Below the pieces are notes generated by a model. That model saw nothing but the letters and a program-made list of their open reading frames with translations. It made no database searches and was not told the origin of the DNA. Position numbers and translations under genes: made by a program. Of a stretch of DNA of 21,383 bases, positions 135 through 16,556 are shown piece by piece (within the stretch, counting starts at the first letter, position 1; every line of letters begins with the position of its first letter). The stretch is from a virus: the UHGV virus genome UHGV-0126007; one strand, 5' to 3'.

Positions 135-1205
135 TTATTTGATTTCAATTTTGTCCCACTCCCTGCCTCTGTCATCACGATACTGTGATGCCATGGTGTC
201 CGACTTATGCCCGAGAAGATGTTGAGCAAACTTATCGCTTATCTGCTTCTCATAGAGTCTTGCAGACAAACTGCGCAACTCGTGAAAGGTAGGCGGATCC
301 CCTTCGAAGGAAAGACCTGATGCTTTTCGTGCGCGCATAAAATACCTTGATACTGTGCCGGATGAAAGCGGTTCACGACGAGTAGATGCAATTATGGTTT
401 CTCCGCCAAGAATCTCTTTGCATTTATCAAGTGTTTCCTTCATTGATATCCCGAGAGCATCAACATGCAATGTTGTTGGGATGGCAATTTTTACGCCTGT
501 TTTGCTTTGCTCGACATAAAGATATCCATCTACGATATCAGACCACTTCATTTCGCATAAATCACCAACTCGTTGCCCGGTAACAACAGCCAGTTCCATT
601 GCAAGTCTGAGCCAACATGGTGATGATTCTGCTGCTTGATAAATTTTCAGGTATTCGTCAGCCGTAAGTCTTGATCTCCTTACCTCTGATTTTGCTGCGC
701 GAGTGGCAGCGACAGGGTTTGTTGTTATATGGCCTTCAGCTATTGCCTCTCGGAATGCATCGCTCAGTGTTGATCTGATTAACTTGGCTGACGCCGCCTT
801 GCCCTCGTCTATGTATCCATTGAGCATTGCCGCAATTTCTTTTGTGGTGATGTCTTCAAGTGGAGCATCAGGCAGACCCCTCCTTATTGCTTTAATTTTG
901 CTCATGTAATTTATGAGTGTCTTCTGCTTGATTCCTCTGCTGGCCAGGATTTTTTCGTAGCGATCAAGCCATGAATGTAACGTAACGGAATTATCACTGT
1001 TGATTCTCGCTGTCAGAGGCTTGTGTTTGTGTCCTGAAAATAACTCAATGTTGGCCTGTATAGCTTCAGTGATTGCGATTCGCCTGTCTCTGCCTAATCC
1101 AAACTCTTTACCCGTCCTTGGGTCCCTGTAGCAGTAATATCCATTGTTTCTTATATAAAGGTTAGGGGGTAAATCCCGGCGCTCATGACTTCGCCTTCTT
1201 CCCAT
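135..1205 (-). CDS. int: Phage lambda integrase (tyrosine recombinase), 356 aa
   Basis: Translation MGRRRSHERRDLPPNLYIRNNGYYCYRDPRTGKEFGLGRDRR...HLLGHKSDTMASQYRDDRGREWDKIEIK is essentially lambda Int from recall; adjacent to attL and overlapped by xis. Confidence 0.97.
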   Translation of the reverse strand: MGRRRSHERRDLPPNLYIRNNGYYCYRDPRTGKEFGLGRDRRIAITEAIQANIELFSGHKHKPLTARINSDNSVTLHSWLDRYEKILASRGIKQKTLINYMSKIKAIRRGLPDAPLEDITTKEIAAMLNGYIDEGKAASAKLIRSTLSDAFREAIAEGHITTNPVAATRAAKSEVRRSRLTADEYLKIYQAAESSPCWLRLAMELAVVTGQRVGDLCEMKWSDIVDGYLYVEQSKTGVKIAIPTTLHVDALGISMKETLDKCKEILGGETIIASTRREPLSSGTVSRYFMRARKASGLSFEGDPPTFHELRSLSARLYEKQISDKFAQHLLGHKSDTMASQYRDDRGREWDKIEIK

Positions 1206-1401
1206 TTCTGATCCTCTTCAAAAGGCTACCTGTTACTGGTCGATTTAAGTCAACCTTTACCGCTGATTCGTGGAACAGATACTCTCTTCCATCCTTAACC
1301 GGAGGAGGGAATATCCTGCACTCGCGTACCCATCGACGAACTGTTTCAAGGCTTCTTGGGCGTCGCTGGCGTGCGTTCCACTCCTGAAGTGTCAAGTACA
1401 T
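1183..1401 (-). CDS. xis: Phage lambda excisionase, 72 aa
   Basis: MYLTLQEWNARQRRPRSLETVRRWVRECRIFPPPVKDGREYLFHESAVKVDLNRPVTGSLLKRIRNGKKAKS matches lambda Xis; 3' end overlaps int start as in lambda. Confidence 0.96.
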   Translation of the reverse strand: MYLTLQEWNARQRRPRSLETVRRWVRECRIFPPPVKDGREYLFHESAVKVDLNRPVTGSLLKRIRNGKKAKS

Positions 1402-2900: not shown

Positions 2901-3698
2901 TTAAACTGCTAGTTGCAATTGCATTTCAAAGCGGTCGCGTTGTTCACAATACGCAAGAGAACCAGGGCTATTGTGTGCCTCAATCCGTTCTACCATTAAT
3001 GCTGCGCGTGTCTCTTTACTTGCAGGTGCATAAGCCCCAGACCAGGCTTTATCAATACCGATGTTTCGAGCGACGTTCGTACTATCTGCGCTGGCTAAGG
3101 GTAATTTTGTGAATATCAGCGGATTTAACATGCGCAATCCATGTAGTTTCGTAACCGGCTGACCATGCCCATCAACAATGTGACGAATCAGGTCTTTCAT
3201 TCTGGCTACCGCAAGAGTTGGGCGCTTTACGTCATAGTCGCCACAACTACCGATAGCCACTCGCGGAAACTCATTGCACAAATGAATAAATCGCGCGTCA
3301 CTTTCATTCATGTGCCACACTGGAACGCCAGCTAGTTTTCCGTGAGGCCACTCATTCAGAAGCGCATCATTTTCCTCCTCTCCGCCATCAATAATATCCG
3401 GGATAATGGCAAAATCGAATCCTGGGTGATTCTTCCAGCGAGCAACAAACTCGTAGTAATCGCTCCAGTCGATTTTGTTTTTGCCAGCTGCTTTCCAGGC
3501 GGTGAATGCACCGTTGTCCAGCGCGAACGACTGACAGTATTCAGCCGCGAGATTGATCTGGCCTGAATGCGCAAAACTGATAAACGCATGTCGCCCTTTC
3601 CATGCTCTCATTGCGCACGTATCAGGAGTAATAGGCCCACCGTGGTAGTGAATCATCTCACTCTCCTTTGATGCGAATGCCAGTAGCGCGGATTGCAT
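2901..3698 (-). CDS. TGT-fold protein (tRNA-guanine transglycosylase superfamily); candidate DpdA-like DNA 7-deazaguanine transglycosylase
   Basis: 265-aa ORF with FALDNGAF (compare TGT substrate-pocket motif DSGGFQ) and ADSTNVARNIG (compare TGT DCVLPTRSGRNG around the catalytic Asp). Sits in the accessory region of the PL operon. Confidence 0.4.
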   Translation of the reverse strand: MQSALLAFASKESEMIHYHGGPITPDTCAMRAWKGRHAFISFAHSGQINLAAEYCQSFALDNGAFTAWKAAGKNKIDWSDYYEFVARWKNHPGFDFAIIPDIIDGGEEENDALLNEWPHGKLAGVPVWHMNESDARFIHLCNEFPRVAIGSCGDYDVKRPTLAVARMKDLIRHIVDGHGQPVTKLHGLRMLNPLIFTKLPLASADSTNVARNIGIDKAWSGAYAPASKETRAALMVERIEAHNSPGSLAYCEQRDRFEMQLQLAV

Positions 3699-6857: not shown

Positions 6858-7148
6858 TTAGTGATTCAGACCGTTGCCGCGCCCGTCGAGAAAAACTTCC
6901 ACGAGCAAGTCACGGGTATAAGTGCGCTCGATGCCGCGATGCAGATAAAGCCGTCCGCGTAAATTAGCTGATGCAGTCCAGGTACCATCTTTGTGTTTGA
7001 CCAGCATTCCTGGCATGACCGCACCGCGATTAACGGTCTGCGTTCCGTAATGTTGATGAACCATAAAAACTCCTGCCCGTAAGCTGGGCTGCTGAACATA
7101 TAAAGACTTCTGCGCGTATTCAGGCGGTGGATGGCCGCCGGTTGTCAT
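6858..7148 (-). CDS. Hypothetical protein, 96 aa; first gene of the leftward early operon (kil/N position)
   Basis: First ORF downstream of the predicted PL; no arginine-rich motif, no similarity to N, Kil or cIII that I can recognise. Confidence 0.4.
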   Translation of the reverse strand: MTTGGHPPPEYAQKSLYVQQPSLRAGVFMVHQHYGTQTVNRGAVMPGMLVKHKDGTWTASANLRGRLYLHRGIERTYTRDLLVEVFLDGRGNGLNH

Positions 7149-7339
7149 AACTAAGCCGCCTCGTTGAAGCGACTAAGGTATGAAATGTTGAGTTGATTTC
7201 AGCTGGTCACACCGACGTTCACGCGTCCGTTTCATCCCTCGCACTACCCGAAGCCTGCTGAAATTCAAGCTGCGGATCTAAGCGGTCATCGCAACGGTGA
7301 AACAGGTGGTTACCGTATCGTTGTGTCGTTGCGATGAAT

Positions 7340-7420
7340 TTATTTAAAACTATAGTTGTTTTATCGTCAACAACAAAAGTTGTTTTATCGGTTGTTTTAA
7401 ATATAACTGGTTGTATTTAG
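7340..7420 (-). promoter_or_regulatory. PL promoter with OL operators (leftward early promoter)
   Basis: On the minus strand: -35 TTGACG (plus 7365-7370), 17-nt spacer, -10 TTAAAT (plus 7342-7347). Promoter and spacer are nearly identical to the predicted PR (TTGACT-17 nt-TAATCT). Flanked by repeated GTTGTTTTA / AACAAC half-sites similar to the OR half-site GGTTGTT. Confidence 0.6.
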
Positions 7421-7508: not shown

Positions 7509-7536
7509 CAAAATAAAACCCGGCACGGTGGCCGGG
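7509..7536 (-). terminator. Rho-independent terminator ending the cI-cargo operon (tImm-like)
   Basis: Stem CCCGGC / GCCGGG (7519-7536) with 6-nt loop; on the minus strand it is followed by UUUUAUUUUG. Sits downstream of the 147-aa gene and upstream of PL. Confidence 0.7.
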
Positions 7537-7613
7537 TTTAGATGATTGGTTAAGAGCGAGGGTAATGGGGAATGAAAAATCGCTTTACCTAATGCAAGGG
7601 TGCGAGCATTTTC

Positions 7614-8057
7614 TTAAGCACTAAAGAAAAAGTACATTGATAGCTTATAAAGTCCTGTTCCTGCAGCGATGATTGCTGGAACACCAAGCAATACCGCAAG
7701 CTTTGCGTCTGAAATCTTTCTATCGACAGCATCACTTGATGGCTTGTTTGTTAAGGATTCTTTTATAGAGTCCAGACGTGCAAGAATAGTTATCATATTT
7801 TTGTCGATAGCTTTAACGTCTGTTTTAAGTTCATCAACGTCTCGTTTGATATGAGCAACATCGGACTCCAGTTTTGCAACTTTTTCAGGCATGTTATCAC
7901 TCCCAGACCCACTGCTACCACTTGATTGTAGCATGTCCCATCTTTTTCCAGATATACCTGCTAGCTGGGAAGACGCACTGGAGTGCAAACAAAATGATTT
8001 TGCCGCCTTTGCAATTTTATCATTTAGGTTTGGAGCTTCGTAATAATCGTGTTTCAT
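7614..8057 (-). CDS. Tail-anchored coiled-coil membrane protein, 147 aa (rex-position cargo gene B)
   Basis: Gly/Ser-rich linker (SSGSSGSGSDN), heptad-like coiled coil (KVAKLESDVAHIKRDVDELKTDVKAIDKNMITILARLDSIKESL), C-terminal hydrophobic helix (LAVLLGVPAIIAAGTGLY). Architecture resembles XhlA-type phage membrane proteins (analogy only). AT-rich by eye. Confidence 0.5.
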   Translation of the reverse strand: MKHDYYEAPNLNDKIAKAAKSFCLHSSASSQLAGISGKRWDMLQSSGSSGSGSDNMPEKVAKLESDVAHIKRDVDELKTDVKAIDKNMITILARLDSIKESLTNKPSSDAVDRKISDAKLAVLLGVPAIIAAGTGLYKLSMYFFFSA

Positions 8058-8069
8058 AATTAATTACGA

Positions 8070-8333
8070 TTAGTTTGTTTTAGCTTTGTCATGCTGGTCG
8101 CGAATGAAGTCAGCCAATTTAAGCATCAATTCTTCGGGCATTCTAATGGTTGCAATGTTGTACTTTATGTTCTCAACATCGTCACTTTCATCAACAGGCC
8201 ATTCAGTTACATTATGAAAAAAAGAAATTGAACCTAGGCGCTGAGAGCCGTCACCAAACGAAGAGTAGCCAAACGCGTCGGCGTATGCATCGACACAGTT
8301 ATTTGATTTTTTAACAAGTGTTTTATTACTCAT
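8070..8333 (-). CDS. Hypothetical small soluble protein, 87 aa (rex-position cargo gene A)
   Basis: ORF directly downstream of cI on the same strand and 12 nt upstream of gene B; AT-rich; no recognisable family. Confidence 0.45.
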   Translation of the reverse strand: MSNKTLVKKSNNCVDAYADAFGYSSFGDGSQRLGSISFFHNVTEWPVDESDDVENIKYNIATIRMPEELMLKLADFIRDQHDKAKTN

Positions 8334-8415: not shown

Positions 8416-9105
8416 TTATCCGTGTTTTCTGTACGTCTGCGGCATGCTCCCAATAACCTTACCGAATATGAATACCCGGTTCATCTCGTCTTTCTCGATC
8501 GGGTCCCACGGTGAGTAGCTCTTGTTATCAGAGATAACCAGTAGCTTATCCTTCATCATTTGCAGGCGCTTTACATGGGCGGTGTCGTCATACAGAAACG
8601 CATAGATGCCATCACCGTCGAAAGATTTAACAGTGATATCAACGAACAGCAGGTCACCTGGTTCGATCGTCCCTGACATGCTGTCACCTCGCACGTTAAT
8701 GATGCGGATATTTTCCGCCTTCCTGCCATCGAACATGTGACGAGCATCGTCAAACGAGTACTCAACCGAGCGTAGAACTTCTACAAACTCACGGTTGATT
8801 ACACCTGGCCCGGCACTGACTTCTATATCAAGAACGTCAATTTTGAAGTATTTGGAATGGCTGACAGTTGATTGTATTGGTTGCACTGTACTGTCTGACA
8901 TATTTCCAACGCCAGAAGATAACCATTCTGCGCGTACACCCAAAGCGTTCGCGATCTCCACGATTTTAGTTGTTTGGTTAGCTTTCCCTGTTTCGATTTT
9001 CTGAATAGCAGCCTGGCTAACCCCGACCAAATCCCCAAGCGCCTTTTGTGTAAGGCCTCGCGCTAATCTGGCTTCTTTAAGTCTTTCTGAGAGTGTTGTT
9101 TTCAT
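8416..9105 (-). CDS. CI-like prophage repressor (N-terminal XRE-type HTH, C-terminal S24/LexA-like autopeptidase domain), 229 aa
   Basis: HTH region LTQKALGDLVGVSQAAIQKIETGK; C-terminal domain with the S24 nucleophile motif (NVRGDSMSGTI) and downstream Lys (HVKRL); divergent from a Cro-like gene across an operator region. Confidence 0.85.
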   Translation of the reverse strand: MKTTLSERLKEARLARGLTQKALGDLVGVSQAAIQKIETGKANQTTKIVEIANALGVRAEWLSSGVGNMSDSTVQPIQSTVSHSKYFKIDVLDIEVSAGPGVINREFVEVLRSVEYSFDDARHMFDGRKAENIRIINVRGDSMSGTIEPGDLLFVDITVKSFDGDGIYAFLYDDTAHVKRLQMMKDKLLVISDNKSYSPWDPIEKDEMNRVFIFGKVIGSMPQTYRKHG

Positions 9106-9209
9106 AGATCAAATGTACAACCAAGGTTTTATTTCATCAAACGAAAATGGTTGTTGACTAAAAACAACCATAGTTTTAATCTTGATTCGGATTAACCACG
9201 GAGGTTGTT
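9106..9209. promoter_or_regulatory. OR region: divergent PRM/PR promoters with operators
   Basis: PR: -35 TTGACT (9154-9159), 17-nt spacer, -10 TAATCT (9177-9182). Operator with 9-bp inverted repeat ATGGTTGTT-N7-AACAACCAT (9147-9171) overlapping the -35; SD GGAGG before cro. Confidence 0.65.
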
Positions 9210-9440
9210 ATGAACCCAGCAATCAAAACAGCGATCAATATCGTTGGTTCACAAAAGAAACTAGGCGATGCCTGCGAAGTTTCACAGCAGGCCGTCTATA
9301 AGTGGCTTCACAACAAAGCAAAGGTATCCCCTGAACATGTCGGCAGCATTGTTACGGCTACTGGTGGAGTTGTGAAGGCATACCAGATTCGCCCGGATCT
9401 TCCGAAGTTGTTTCCACACACCGAAAAGAACGCAGCTTAA
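9210..9440 (+). CDS. Cro-like HTH regulator (Cro/YdaS-type), 76 aa
   Basis: Small HTH protein (GDACEVSQQAVYKWL) transcribed divergently from the repressor from the PR-like promoter. Confidence 0.7.
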   Translation: MNPAIKTAINIVGSQKKLGDACEVSQQAVYKWLHNKAKVSPEHVGSIVTATGGVVKAYQIRPDLPKLFPHTEKNAA

Positions 9441-9452
9441 ATTTCCATTTCA

Positions 9453-9465
9453 CGCTCTTTAACAA
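9453..9465 (+). promoter_or_regulatory. boxA-like antitermination element (CGCTCTTTAACAA) in the rightward early transcript
   Basis: Matches the boxA consensus CGCTCTT(T)A and, from recall, nearly the whole rrn boxA (GCTCTTTAACAA) 13 nt after the cro stop; no boxB-like hairpin follows. Confidence 0.5.
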
Positions 9466-9509
9466 TAAGCAATCAACTTAACAGTCAATTCAAACTAAAG
9501 GAGTCAATT

Positions 9510-10049
9510 ATGCAACCACTTACATACCAACAGACTAGCGGATTTATTCCGACTGCGGTGATAAATCGTTCTCAAACAAAACAAGCTCCAGGCCACGAAA
9601 AAATCCGTGATGCCGTCCGCGCCTGGTCGGCTGTAGATAATCAGGATGTCGTTGCCGCACTCATTGTGAATGAGTATCGGGAGCAGGGCGACGGCACCAT
9701 CGATTTCCCTGATGATGTCAGCCGTGCACGCCAGAAGCTGTTCCGCTTCCTCGATAACAAATTCGATTCTGAAAAATACCGAAATAACGTGCGTGAACTG
9801 ACCCCGGCAATTCTGGCGGTACTACCGCTGGAATATCGCGGTTACCTGGTTGAGCAGGATAGCTTCATGACTCGGTTGGCTGAAATGGAAAAGGAACTCA
9901 GTGAGGCAAAACAGGCTGTCATTCTCAACGCACCACGCCACCAGAAACTGAAGGAAATGAGTGAAGGTATTGTGTCGATGTTTCGTGTGGACCCGGATCT
10001 GGCTGGTCCATTAATGGCGATGGTGACCACCATGCTGGGGGCAATATGA
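9510..10049 (+). CDS. Protein in the cII position, 179 aa; possibly a YdaT-family CII analogue
   Basis: Gene order repressor / Cro-like / this ORF / replication genes. Segment TPAILAVLPLEYRGYLV is reminiscent of YdaT-family proteins (weak, memory-based). Not lambda CII. Confidence 0.3.
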   Translation: MQPLTYQQTSGFIPTAVINRSQTKQAPGHEKIRDAVRAWSAVDNQDVVAALIVNEYREQGDGTIDFPDDVSRARQKLFRFLDNKFDSEKYRNNVRELTPAILAVLPLEYRGYLVEQDSFMTRLAEMEKELSEAKQAVILNAPRHQKLKEMSEGIVSMFRVDPDLAGPLMAMVTTMLGAI

Positions 10050-13690: not shown

Positions 13691-13741
13691 TTATGTCGTG
13701 ACAGCATAATTGCGATGTCAACGATAAGCAGAGGTTTGAAA

Positions 13742-13936
13742 ATGAAATCACAATCACCAGTGCAGCATGAAGTTAACATCGACGGCAAAGAGTATGTTGT
13801 CACAGTAGTCCAAACCGGCAAGTCAACGTGGAGGGCATGGGGAGATTCCTGGGGGCGCCATATAGTCGAAACAGGTTCTAGCGAACATAGCGCGCTTTCT
13901 CATTGGAAAGCAAAAGCTTTAGTTATGAATGGGTAG
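13742..13936 (+). CDS. Hypothetical small protein, about 64 aa (the frame is open from 13715)
   Basis: ORF with SD-like AGAGG about 9 nt upstream of ATG 13742; no recognisable family. Confidence 0.35.
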   Translation: MKSQSPVQHEVNIDGKEYVVTVVQTGKSTWRAWGDSWGRHIVETGSSEHSALSHWKAKALVMNG

Positions 13937-13949
13937 CGCGGAAACTTTG

Positions 13950-13985
13950 AAGGTATAATCCCCTCAAATAATCGAGGGGGTTTTT
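13950..13985 (+). promoter_or_regulatory. Hairpin (CCCCTC...GAGGGGG + T-run) immediately upstream of the moron start codon, with a TATAAT hexamer just upstream
   Basis: TATAAT at 13953-13958, then stem CCCCTC / GAGGGG with 8-nt loop and TTTTT running into the ATG at 13986; the 3' arm GAGGGGG doubles as the likely Shine-Dalgarno. Confidence 0.45.
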
Positions 13986-14495
13986 ATGTCTGGTTGGGAT
14001 AACGGTATAGATGCAGTTTCTGCGATTGCAGCTATCGCATCTGCGGTAGCAACTTATTTAGCATGGCGATCCTCAGAAGCTAGCAGGGCCACATCCGAAA
14101 AAGCTTTGCAGTTGCAAGGAAAGCAGTATTTGTACGAGACATTAAAAGCTTGCGCTGAGAGAGCGAATTCATACTCAAAAGGAAAGAAAGGGGCTGACTG
14201 GAGCTTTCATGACGCAGCCAATATTGTTCGATGTTTGAACATGGCAATGGGGAGCATAATAAATTACTCAGATACCAACAATCAGGATGCAATGAAAGGT
14301 CTGAAGCAATTCTTTATTAGTCAATTAAACATGGAGCTTTTTGAAGAGCTCAACTATGAGGTTGGGCCTGATGCCTTCTTTCACGGAGAGGAGCTAACCA
14401 GCATGACGAGCGATATTTACTCGCAGTGGTTAAACATTATTTCATTCTTTAACCTCATGATTGTCACAGATGATGACCTCGCCGATGAAACATAG
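13986..14495 (+). CDS. Membrane-anchored protein of unknown function, 169 aa (AT-rich moron in nin region)
   Basis: N-terminal hydrophobic helix (AVSAIAAIASAVATYLAW) followed by about 140 aa of soluble domain; composition visibly more AT-rich than flanking genes; bracketed by a hairpin upstream and a 187-bp non-coding spacer downstream. Confidence 0.55.
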   Translation: MSGWDNGIDAVSAIAAIASAVATYLAWRSSEASRATSEKALQLQGKQYLYETLKACAERANSYSKGKKGADWSFHDAANIVRCLNMAMGSIINYSDTNNQDAMKGLKQFFISQLNMELFEELNYEVGPDAFFHGEELTSMTSDIYSQWLNIISFFNLMIVTDDDLADET

Positions 14496-14682
14496 CTTGA
14501 TTGATTTTCCATAATCAACCCGCCATAATCATGTCATCGGAGCCTGAACAACTCCGGTGACTTCTGCGCTAAACGGGGACGTTTATGCGCACATACAATC
14601 CAAACTCACTTCTCCCGTCACAGATGCAGAAATGCACCTGCGATTTTTTGTATTCTGCGTTTTACCTCTACGGAGGTGAAGC

Positions 14683-16087: not shown

Positions 16088-16172
16088 AGTCAGAGATAAC
16101 AATCAACTAATACTGTTTTGTTGATTTTTGCTTGTAATTGGCGTTCTGGTCTGAGTTTTGTGGAGTAAGTTG

Positions 16173-16556
16173 ATGCGTGATATTCAGATGGTTCTTGAGC
16201 GTTGGGGAGCGTGGGCGGCTAATAATCATGAAGATGTGACCTGGTCGTCCATTGCCGCCGGTTTTAAGGGATTAATTCCTTCAAAAGTAAAATCTCGCCC
16301 ACAATGTTGTGACGATGACGCGATGATCATTTGCGGGTGCATGGCCCGTCTGAAAAAGAACAACAGCGATTTGCACGATTTATTAGTAGATTATTATGTA
16401 GTCGGTATGACATTCATGTCACTGGCAGGTAAGCATTGCTGCTCTGATGGTTATATCGGGAAAAGGTTACAAAAGGCTGAGGGCATAATTGAAGGGATGT
16501 TAATGGCATTAGATATCCGGTTAGAGATGGATATCGTTGTTAATAACTCTAATTAA
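16173..16556 (+). CDS. quuD: Late-gene antiterminator Q (phage 82 / DLP12 QuuD type), 127 aa
   Basis: [90 protein letters not shown]... matches QuuD from recall; the ORF-track TTG at 16158 is probably not the real start. Confidence 0.88.

Follow-up and report, generated by a model that had tools for sequence, protein, structure and literature searches.

The window analysed here is a stretch of 21,383 nt (21.4 kb) from the UHGV virus genome UHGV-0126007, and the element in question is a boxA in the spacer between its cro gene and a cII-like gene. The window covers a lambdoid (pro)phage's early region, with int/xis (135-1401, minus strand) at one end and, at the other, the lysis genes and the beginning of the terminase. 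The genes are organised as: (i) a leftward operon of pL, a ~190-nt leader, kil, gam, bet, exo and further genes to xis and int, (ii) an immunity region of cI (minus strand) and, leftward of it, two moron open reading frames (ORFs) and a terminator, and (iii) a rightward operon of pR, cro, the cII-like gene, O, P, ren, nin-type genes and Q. The nearest phages are PhiR26_1, PhiR34_1 and IdasGreatGrand, as well as 4A7 (species Bievrevirus bv4A7 of the International Committee on Taxonomy of Viruses, from a phage collection), 4C10 and Perceval, which belong to the genus Bievrevirus and have another immunity region. As prophage copies have emrE, ybcK and ybcL downstream, the phage is assigned to the DLP12-like family. 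The features at the junction are:

9210..9440, plus strand: cro (YdaS-type; PF15943, 6.6e-17; phrog_35), annotated as Cro in PhiR26_1
9441..9509, plus strand: cro-cII spacer, 69 nt, untranslated, with the boxA and the cII Shine-Dalgarno AAGGAG (9494-9499)
9453..9465, plus strand: boxA CGCTCTTTAACAA, an exact match and the only one in the window
9510..10049, plus strand: cII-like activator (YdaT-type; PF06254, 4.3e-30; phrog_163), with a break in cassette homology at its ATG
8416..9105, minus strand: cI repressor (HTH and S24 peptidase; PHROG and Pfam scans)
9147..9186, plus strand: putative oR/pR (TTGACT, 17 nt, TAATCT, with the overlapping palindrome ATGGTTGTTGACTAAAAACAACCAT), read from the sequence and nearly identical to a copy at pL

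The boxA and its surroundings

The boxA lies 12 nt past the cro stop (9440) and 44 nt before the ATG of the cII-like gene (9510). An exact CGCTCTTTAACAA is expected 0.01 times by chance in the window, as estimated from 100 dinucleotide shuffles. A first-pass annotation of the sequence alone had noted the consensus match and, from recall, a 12 of 13 match to the boxA of the rRNA operons (rrn); the former is exact and unique, and the latter agrees with the MG1655 genome, where the rrnH leader reads TGCTCTTTAACAAT. The window and the rrnH leader are identical over 13 consecutive bases (GCTCTTTAACAAT), and the preceding base alone differs. Positions 9454-9464 (GCTCTTTAACA) also match perfectly GYTCTTTAANA, an experimentally derived consensus based on functional boxAs (PMC5725501), and do so within 50 nt upstream of a start codon. 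The boxA is ~270 nt downstream of the inferred pR, in RNA transcribed from this putative sigma-70-type promoter.

The spacer around the boxA is A/U-rich, has 15 C versus 6 G, and reaches a C/G ratio of 2.1-2.6, which is at or above the 99th percentile of the 78-nt segments of the window. It is unstructured (fold z = 0.08 versus shuffles) and, in composition, resembles a Rho entry (rut-like) site. The boxA is separated from the cII Shine-Dalgarno by 29 nt. This distance is not fixed, since an insertion of 12 nt (ACTGATTAACAG, which duplicates TTAACAG) is tolerated 3' of the boxA, in the 9482-9483 region, in 47 of 1515 E. coli genomes; examples are the loci L006 (6276-6287), L069, L151, L156 and L160.

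The boxA has no boxB, N gene or nutL at its side. The first two absences had been claimed by the first-pass annotation and are borne out. Hairpins in 9441-9540 do not exceed 4 bp or a single G-C pair, and the 45 nt 3' of the boxA fold at -0.8 kcal/mol versus -9.3 to -10.4 for the nutR sites of the loci L107, L100 and L097. No N family is detected when every sizeable ORF from int through Q is scanned with PHROG and Pfam. Similarly, tblastn with seven N/Nun queries (lambda N, P22 N, phi21 N, three N proteins of related loci and HK022 Nun) has no hit in the window and recovers N or Nun in the controls L107, L100, L164-L166 and HK022. As N analogues can be non-homologous and unusually placed (e.g., mEp021 Gp17, PMC11893012), the window was also scanned for arginine-rich motifs (ARMs), with no credible N analogue. 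An ARM-like peptide (MKRTRERRCDQL...) is encoded by an ORF at 7236-7173 (minus strand), inside the pL leader RNA, but is rejected as a mini-N because the frame is not conserved: it stops after four codons in L087, and its own stop codon is polymorphic (TAG/CAG). A partner nutL is likewise absent; the whole window has a single boxA core at one mismatch or fewer, and the pL operon has none.

These searches weigh on one alternative, in which the junction would serve, as a complete nut site, an N analogue that went unrecognised and that either binds elsewhere or can do without a boxB hairpin. While the mEp021 protein provides a precedent for such an oddly placed analogue, the junction has no hairpin and no partner nutL, and the lone ARM-like ORF of the window is the one cut short in L087, with no conserved arginine-rich ORF besides. 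This alternative is thus highly improbable.

One further string was considered as nutL and rejected. The sequence CGCTCTTAACCAA (7546..7558, minus strand) has two mismatches to the boxA, and 13 of 100 shuffles give at least two hits of this quality, which marks it as a chance match. It lies upstream of pL, in a moron-specific 3' untranslated region, and so is outside the pL transcript; nor is it conserved, as the nearest relative of the same moron reads CCCTTTCTTAACC. The string has a lambda-type CGCTCTTAA core and is located 6 nt upstream of the terminator at 7516-7539.

Distribution and pedigree of the boxA

Of 5426 complete E. coli genomes, 1524 (~28%) have the cro gene and the spacer at an identity of at least 95%. 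Carriers of the boxA cassette include O157:H7, O104:H4 and ST131 genomes as well as isolated, growable phages (PhiR26_1 and others). The E. coli copies are almost clonal: of 1515 genomes, 1443 do not differ at all over 85 nt around the spacer. All ten sampled distinct neighbourhoods of the exact Cro have the order kil-gam-bet / cI / cro / YdaT / O / P and never include N.

A different picture emerges when loci are collected by the downstream gene. Among 83 phage, prophage and IMG/VR loci, each with an identifiable cII start that matches that of the window (at least 97%), 45 have the boxA spacer (type A) and 38 have a 30-nt cro-cII spacer with no boxA (type B). The DNA homology between the two types starts exactly at the cII ATG, with the break at query position 210, which is position 9509 of the window. 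Phage 4A7, of type B, has no boxA core at one mismatch or fewer in a region of ~12 kb. HK639 has the same cI, cro and cII families, a cro-cII spacer of 29 nt and no boxA. In a diverse sample of YdaT-type loci (58 loci, one genome per species), short boxA-less cro-cII spacers are found in 55. The three exceptions are L107, which has a lambda-type nutR and a lambda-like N; L100, which has a boxA and hairpin at both the nutR and nutL positions and a P22-like N; and L097, which has a boxA and hairpin but no recognisable N. A boxA upstream of the YdaT gene is, therefore, not kept across genera (3 of 58 loci, two of which are full nut sites with N). Conservation in related prophages, which the first-pass annotation had offered as a check, is accordingly divided: the boxA is invariant across 56 type-A loci and absent from the type-B sisters and from 55 of the 58 YdaT-type loci. 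On this distribution, the boxA is a property of one immunity cassette (cI-cro-spacer) and not a requirement of the shared rightward operon.

The same distribution bears on the model of the first-pass annotation, in which an rrn-type complex of NusB, NusE, NusA, NusG as well as SuhB would assemble on the boxA, provide processive resistance to termination over the whole rightward operon to Q and, thus, replace N. Several observations are in line with this model. The boxA is identical to that of rrn, and a boxA alone is enough for the rrn-type read-through of Rho-dependent terminators (PMC6614797; reporter studies). The RNA in the pL leader has no copy in the pR operon, so no other candidate lies upstream of cII, and terminator-like sites are present before Q. 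BoxA-like motifs are also found repeatedly in pL leaders elsewhere among the N-less YdaT-type prophages. By contrast, the type-B phages have the same cII-O-P operon with no boxA in ~12 kb, HK639 has no boxA after cro, the pL operon of the window has none either, and the best terminator before Q (13957-13982) is intrinsic. Intrinsic terminators are suppressed poorly by rrn-type complexes, as is the case for the rrnG leader. The model is, thus, improbable: with 38 of the 83 loci of near-identical cII, HK639 and 55 of the 58 YdaT-type prophages devoid of a boxA, the element of the window, as judged by this comparison, is not the operon-wide substitute for N of the phage family. The part of the proposal that stands is the probable binding of host NusB/NusE in the absence of N, as the 12-nt core shared with the rrn boxA makes binding a reasonable inference.

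The ancestry of the element is apparent from diverged relatives of the type-A Cro (79-83% amino-acid identity), which were traced to their contigs. The sequences that follow cro in these relatives are:

L162 and L163, Citrobacter koseri type: CACGCTCTTTAACAAT, 20 nt, a 6-bp GNRA-capped hairpin (GGCUGA-GGAA-UCAGCC) and a lambda-type cII; no N recognised
L164, Pluralibacter: TGCTCTTTAACAAT and a hairpin; N present
L166, Pantoea: CGCTCTTTGTCAAT and a hairpin; N present
L165, Serratia: P22-like boxB only; N present

The C. koseri loci L162 and L163 have operators nearly identical to those of the window and a cI DNA-binding domain that is about 85% identical. The 16-mer CACGCTCTTTAACAAT is unchanged (16/16) between E. 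coli and these loci, whereas both flanks of the boxA and the 3' end of cro have diverged. The boxA of the window is, on these comparisons, orthologous to the boxA of nutR-type sites, with the hairpin half missing (i.e., the pedigree of a truncated nutR). How the hairpin half went missing, by deletion or by replacement, is a separate matter. When the 44 nt 3' of the boxA are aligned to the hairpin-containing sites of L162 and L097, 304 and 542 of 2000 shuffles, respectively, reach the observed score; alignments at this shuffle level do not warrant the claim that boxB was specifically deleted. Homology between L097 and L100 stops immediately 3' of the boxA, which places the boxA at mosaic junctions.

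The boxA-hairpin arrangement of the relatives is of note in its own right. A module of ~50 nt, composed of the boxA, 20 nt and the hairpin GGCUGA-G(G/U)AA-UCAGCC, occurs in L162 (3747-3795), L163 (3747-3795) and L097 (3919-3967) and is kept between prophages that differ in their cI/cro and cII types and in which no N is detected. The pL leaders of L162, L163 and L097 have a hairpin of similar form, GCUGA-GCGAAG-UUAGC. Possibly, an unknown factor has its site in this module, or the module belongs to an N-independent element.

The pedigree provides the basis of a serious rival to any functional reading, which is that the boxA is an inert relic: a leftover of nutR carried with the cassette into an N-less backbone, where it may bind NusB/NusE with no regulatory consequence. 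The Cro-family relatives have a boxA and hairpin at the same place, and the L164, L165 and L166 lineages also encode N. The position of the boxA at mosaic junctions and its absence from sister phages with the same downstream operon fit this history as well, and selection on the boxA cannot be demonstrated from E. coli copies as uniform as these. Four observations run the other way. All 16 bases are shared with the C. koseri orthologue in spite of the divergence of the flanks and of the cro 3' end. No recent N-encoding donor is visible, as the ten exact-Cro neighbourhoods are all N-less. The diversity of the spacer is below the level of linked, synonymous-like sites. Finally, on a transcript of E. 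coli RNA polymerase, a perfect rrn-type boxA should recruit Nus factors in any context of transcription. An inert relic is, on balance, quite possible, and should this be the case, the boxA illustrates how mosaic exchange can strand half of a nut site and warns against reading function from a perfect consensus match.

A proposed local role for the boxA and candidates for the replacement of N

The explanation favoured here, with a probability of about 0.45, is that the orphan boxA still binds Nus factors and acts locally at the cro-cII junction. The element would be the boxA half of a nutR-type site that was inherited with the cI-cro cassette by an N-less lambdoid phage of the DLP12/4A7/PhiR26-like group. 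As this RNA and the rrn boxA core are the same in sequence, it is most likely that NusB-NusE still bind the pR transcript and that a host Nus complex (NusA, NusG and SuhB) is nucleated there, in the manner of the rrn leader and the suhB 5' untranslated region. The effect is probably local, since the untranslated, unstructured, C-rich and G-poor 69 nt would make an ideal loading site for Rho; the boxA would, in this setting, tune Rho-dependent termination or polarity at the junction and/or the translation of cII (YdaT). Nus binding at this boxA is predicted from the sequence identity, and the direction and size of any effect are likewise putative. In rrn antitermination, the boxA is the sole RNA element required, with boxB and boxC dispensable (PMC6614797). 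Both suhB and a gene for a ParE-like toxin are regulated by stand-alone boxAs, which were found through a consensus match no more than 50 nt from a start codon; this repression needs the full Nus complex and works even at 100 nt from the Shine-Dalgarno (PMC5725501).

Two lines of sequence conservation argue for a function of the boxA. First, among 25 haplotypes of the 56 type-A loci, segregating sites number one in the 69 nt of the spacer versus seven in the 77 third-codon positions of cro; about six would be expected in the spacer at the rate of the cro third positions (Poisson P about 0.01), and the spacer is, thus, less diverse than linked, nearly neutral sites. Second, the identity of CACGCTCTTTAACAAT with C. 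koseri persists amid diverged flanks. The distribution of the element is compatible with a local role. The type-B phages have only about 30 nt between cro and cII and, therefore, would have no room for Rho entry; a role confined to the long type-A spacer, thus, reconciles a boxA that is probably functional here with one that is not needed elsewhere.

Several points weigh against this explanation. The boxA is dispensable for the shared rightward operon, as it is absent from the sister phages and from most related phages. The low diversity of the spacer could equally reflect the Shine-Dalgarno or a pRE-type promoter, and the latter is known at the ydaS-ydaT junction of CP-933P (PMC9986795). The near clonality of the E. 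coli copies leaves no statistical power for selection on the 13 bases of the boxA, and a recent loss of boxB would leave the boxA intact yet useless. Nus complexes prevent or promote Rho termination according to context, and an effect of the boxA could have either sign. Finally, the local role is a prediction from sequence comparison.

The mention of a pRE-type promoter raises a further alternative, in which the spacer acts at the level of DNA, as a leftward pRE-type promoter or as sites for the cII-like protein, and the match to boxA is incidental. YdaT of CP-933P footprints ~95 bp that include the 3' end of ydaS and the ydaS-ydaT junction, which is the site of PRE933P (PMC9986795). The spacer of the window has direct repeats (AGTCAATT twice, and TTAACA motifs) and is conserved as a whole. 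However, a boxA that matches at 13 of 13 positions against 0.01 expected, occupies the canonical nutR position and is orthologous to nutR-type boxAs is not plausibly incidental. The same cII protein also serves type-B phages with an unrelated spacer, so sites for this protein are unlikely to reside in a spacer specific to type A, and the CP-933P protein is only a remote relative of the YdaT of the window (E = 5.5e-4). An assignment of the CP-933P YdaT operator motif to the spacer was rejected for this reason and because the spacer matches it with three mismatches, which is the background level. This alternative is very unlikely.

If the boxA is functional as proposed, a phage boxA ahead of a regulator of the lysis-lysogeny decision would widen the class of stand-alone boxAs, for which regulation is described, in the literature searched, only for rrn, suhB and one toxin gene. 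The occurrence of type-A and type-B cassettes on the same backbone provides a clean natural experiment.

As to the replacement of N in this phage family, the lead from the search points to conserved RNAs in the pL leader rather than to the boxA. The features concerned are:

7345..7400, minus strand: putative oL/pL (TTGTTGACGATAAAACAACTATAGTTTTAAAT), a copy of the pR/operator sequence, assigned by similarity to pR
7229..7337, minus strand: conserved two-hairpin RNA of ~105 nt at the 5' end of the pL transcript (fold z = -2.66)

The two-hairpin RNA is kept behind three unrelated pL/operator types. A covariance model (R1) detects it once in the window and nowhere in the rightward operon; the homologues that the model detects in Trabulsiella and Enterobacter prophages (L087, L108 and L122) are diverged and have compensatory changes in stem II. 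An Rfam scan of the whole window finds nothing relevant, and the two-hairpin RNA has no Rfam family. No similarity to HK022 putL/putR or HK639 putL is seen by eye, and model R1 has no hit in HK022 or HK639. By analogy, this RNA is a candidate put-like antiterminator and the likeliest early antitermination element of the N-less family. Conserved pL-leader RNAs of this kind are not in Rfam and are not described in the literature searched.

A second, unrelated family of pL leader RNAs is found in 14 loci. It is about 220 nt in length, has seven covarying pairs and is hosted by Enterobacter, Citrobacter and Escherichia prophages that have no recognisable N (L162:1121-1358(-), L097:2079-2316(-), L088-L092, L096, L111, L135-L137, L139, L141, L142 and L163). 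Its beginning resembles the HK639 leader, and a single-stranded boxA-like TGCTTTTTAACAA is located between hairpins; in L137, the motif matches the rrn boxA exactly (TGCTCTTTAACAA). The pL of L162 is followed by about 700 nt of non-coding sequence.

As boxA-like motifs recur in the leaders of N-less relatives, a broader hypothesis is kept alive, in which N-less enterobacterial lambdoid prophages use a stand-alone boxA and the host Nus complex, alone or with structured leader RNAs, as a third strategy of early transcription besides N/nut and put. Its forms would be an orphan boxA after cro and the boxA-like TGCT(T/C)TTTAACAA in the ~220-nt pL leader RNA. This hypothesis is doubtful. If true, such a Nus-based device could couple the expression of cII and the replication genes and, hence, the choice between lysis and lysogeny to the growth state of the host, since free NusB/NusE track ribosome synthesis.

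Neighbouring features and known systems

The remaining features of the window are:

6858..7148, minus strand: kil, first gene of the pL operon, at the position of lambda N (phrog_294, 1.2e-38)
7516..7539, minus strand: intrinsic terminator CCCGGCCACCGTGCCGGGTTTT that closes the cI-moron transcript at the edge of the moron slot, kept in many loci
13957..13982, plus strand: strongest intrinsic-terminator-like site between P/ren and Q (9-bp stem, 5 G-C pairs, T5 tail)
16158..16556, plus strand: Q-type late antiterminator (PF06530, 9.7e-54)

The kil gene is in the same order in PhiR26_1, 4A7, an O157:H7 prophage and the ten distinct neighbourhoods of the exact Cro. A 9-bp hairpin (about 7179-7159) sequesters its Shine-Dalgarno (GAGG), and the 96-aa 'Kil' ORF has an in-frame N-terminal extension (MTTGGHPPPEYAQKSLYV...) before the Kil start that is conserved (MVHQHYGT). 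Positions 7175-7173 are polymorphic (TAG/CAG), which opens or closes a further upstream frame, the open form of which is the 125-aa Kil annotated in PhiR26_1. These features of the kil leader (7148-7236, minus strand) suggest the translational control of a toxic gene.

The terminator CCCGGCCACCGTGCCGGGTTTT bounds a moron slot, between cI and pL, in E. coli phages, Citrobacter, Kluyvera, Klebsiella and HK639. The sequence from this terminator to cI is variable cargo, which in the window consists of the ORFs 7614-8057 (phrog_3556) and 8070-8333 (phrog_4231) and in relatives includes HipA, Gev, a lipoprotein and ASCH genes, among others. The leftward operon has an ORF of 265 aa (2901-3698, minus strand) related to phage queuine tRNA-ribosyltransferase-like proteins (phrog_887, 5.8e-102), which may be a DpdA-type gene of 7-deazaguanine DNA modification.

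Within the nin region, a perfect TATAAT (13954-13959) is followed by the terminator-like hairpin at 13957-13982, which ends 3 nt 5' of the ATG of an ORF (13986-14495). This odd arrangement adjoins an ORF (13715-13936) that has no PHROG match. Farther downstream, the 188-nt gap upstream of ninB has an exact TTGATTTTCCATAATCAA (14501-14518, plus strand), which is the CP-933P YdaT operator TTGATTN6AATCAA with zero mismatches at its 12 specified bases. It overlaps a promoter-like site (TTGATT, 17 nt, CATAAT), and a weak terminator-like hairpin is located at 14625-14642.

The junction and the pL leader of the window can be compared to four known systems. The put mechanism of HK022 and HK639, which are N-less lambdoid phages like the one studied here, needs no Nus factors or boxA; its read-through of terminators depends on the zinc-binding domain of the RNA polymerase beta' subunit. 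HK022 putL is formed by two adjacent stem-loops at the start of the pL transcript (PMC9378689). The pL transcript of the window likewise starts with two adjacent stem-loops (7229-7337, not the boxA), and HK639, with the same cI/cro/cII families, has an annotated putL in the left operon only. Unlike put, the pL leader of the window has no sequence similarity to the HK022/HK639 sites and no Rfam family.

The nutR sites of lambda, P22 and related N-dependent phages are similar to the boxA of the window in lying between cro and cII, a few bases past the cro stop, and in sequence, which is of the P22/consensus type. The lambda boxA is embedded in rutA of tR1, and the boxA of the window is, similarly, in a C-rich, G-poor stretch. 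Orthology extends to the boxA-hairpin sites of L162, L164, L166, L100 and L107. By contrast to nutR systems, the window has no boxB hairpin, N gene or nutL partner. The boxAs of the rrn leader and spacer, which assemble a NusB-NusE-NusA-NusG-SuhB-S4 complex, need no phage protein, and the rrnH leader shares GCTCTTTAACAAT with the window. Unlike rrn, the RNA downstream of the boxA is translated mRNA and not a long, untranslated, structured RNA; the window also has no upstream hairpin and no GU-rich boxC, and its boxA is ~270 nt from the promoter, after a translated gene.

The fourth comparison is to the stand-alone boxAs of the suhB type, in which the Nus complex blocks translation, Rho then terminates transcription, and the boxA may be up to 100 nt from the Shine-Dalgarno (PMC5725501). 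As in these cases, a start codon of the window is preceded within 50 nt by a perfect GYTCTTTAANA, boxB and N are absent, and the gene downstream belongs to a mobile element and is regulatory or toxin-like. The boxA of the window differs in that it is flanked by two genes of one operon, instead of heading a transcript at its 5' end, and in that it is not kept with the downstream gene from genus to genus (3 of 58 YdaT loci). The locus is not among the E. coli rows examined in the supplementary table of that study. Thus, the element is best filed as a new addition to the stand-alone boxAs, with the pedigree of a truncated nutR and a putative function.

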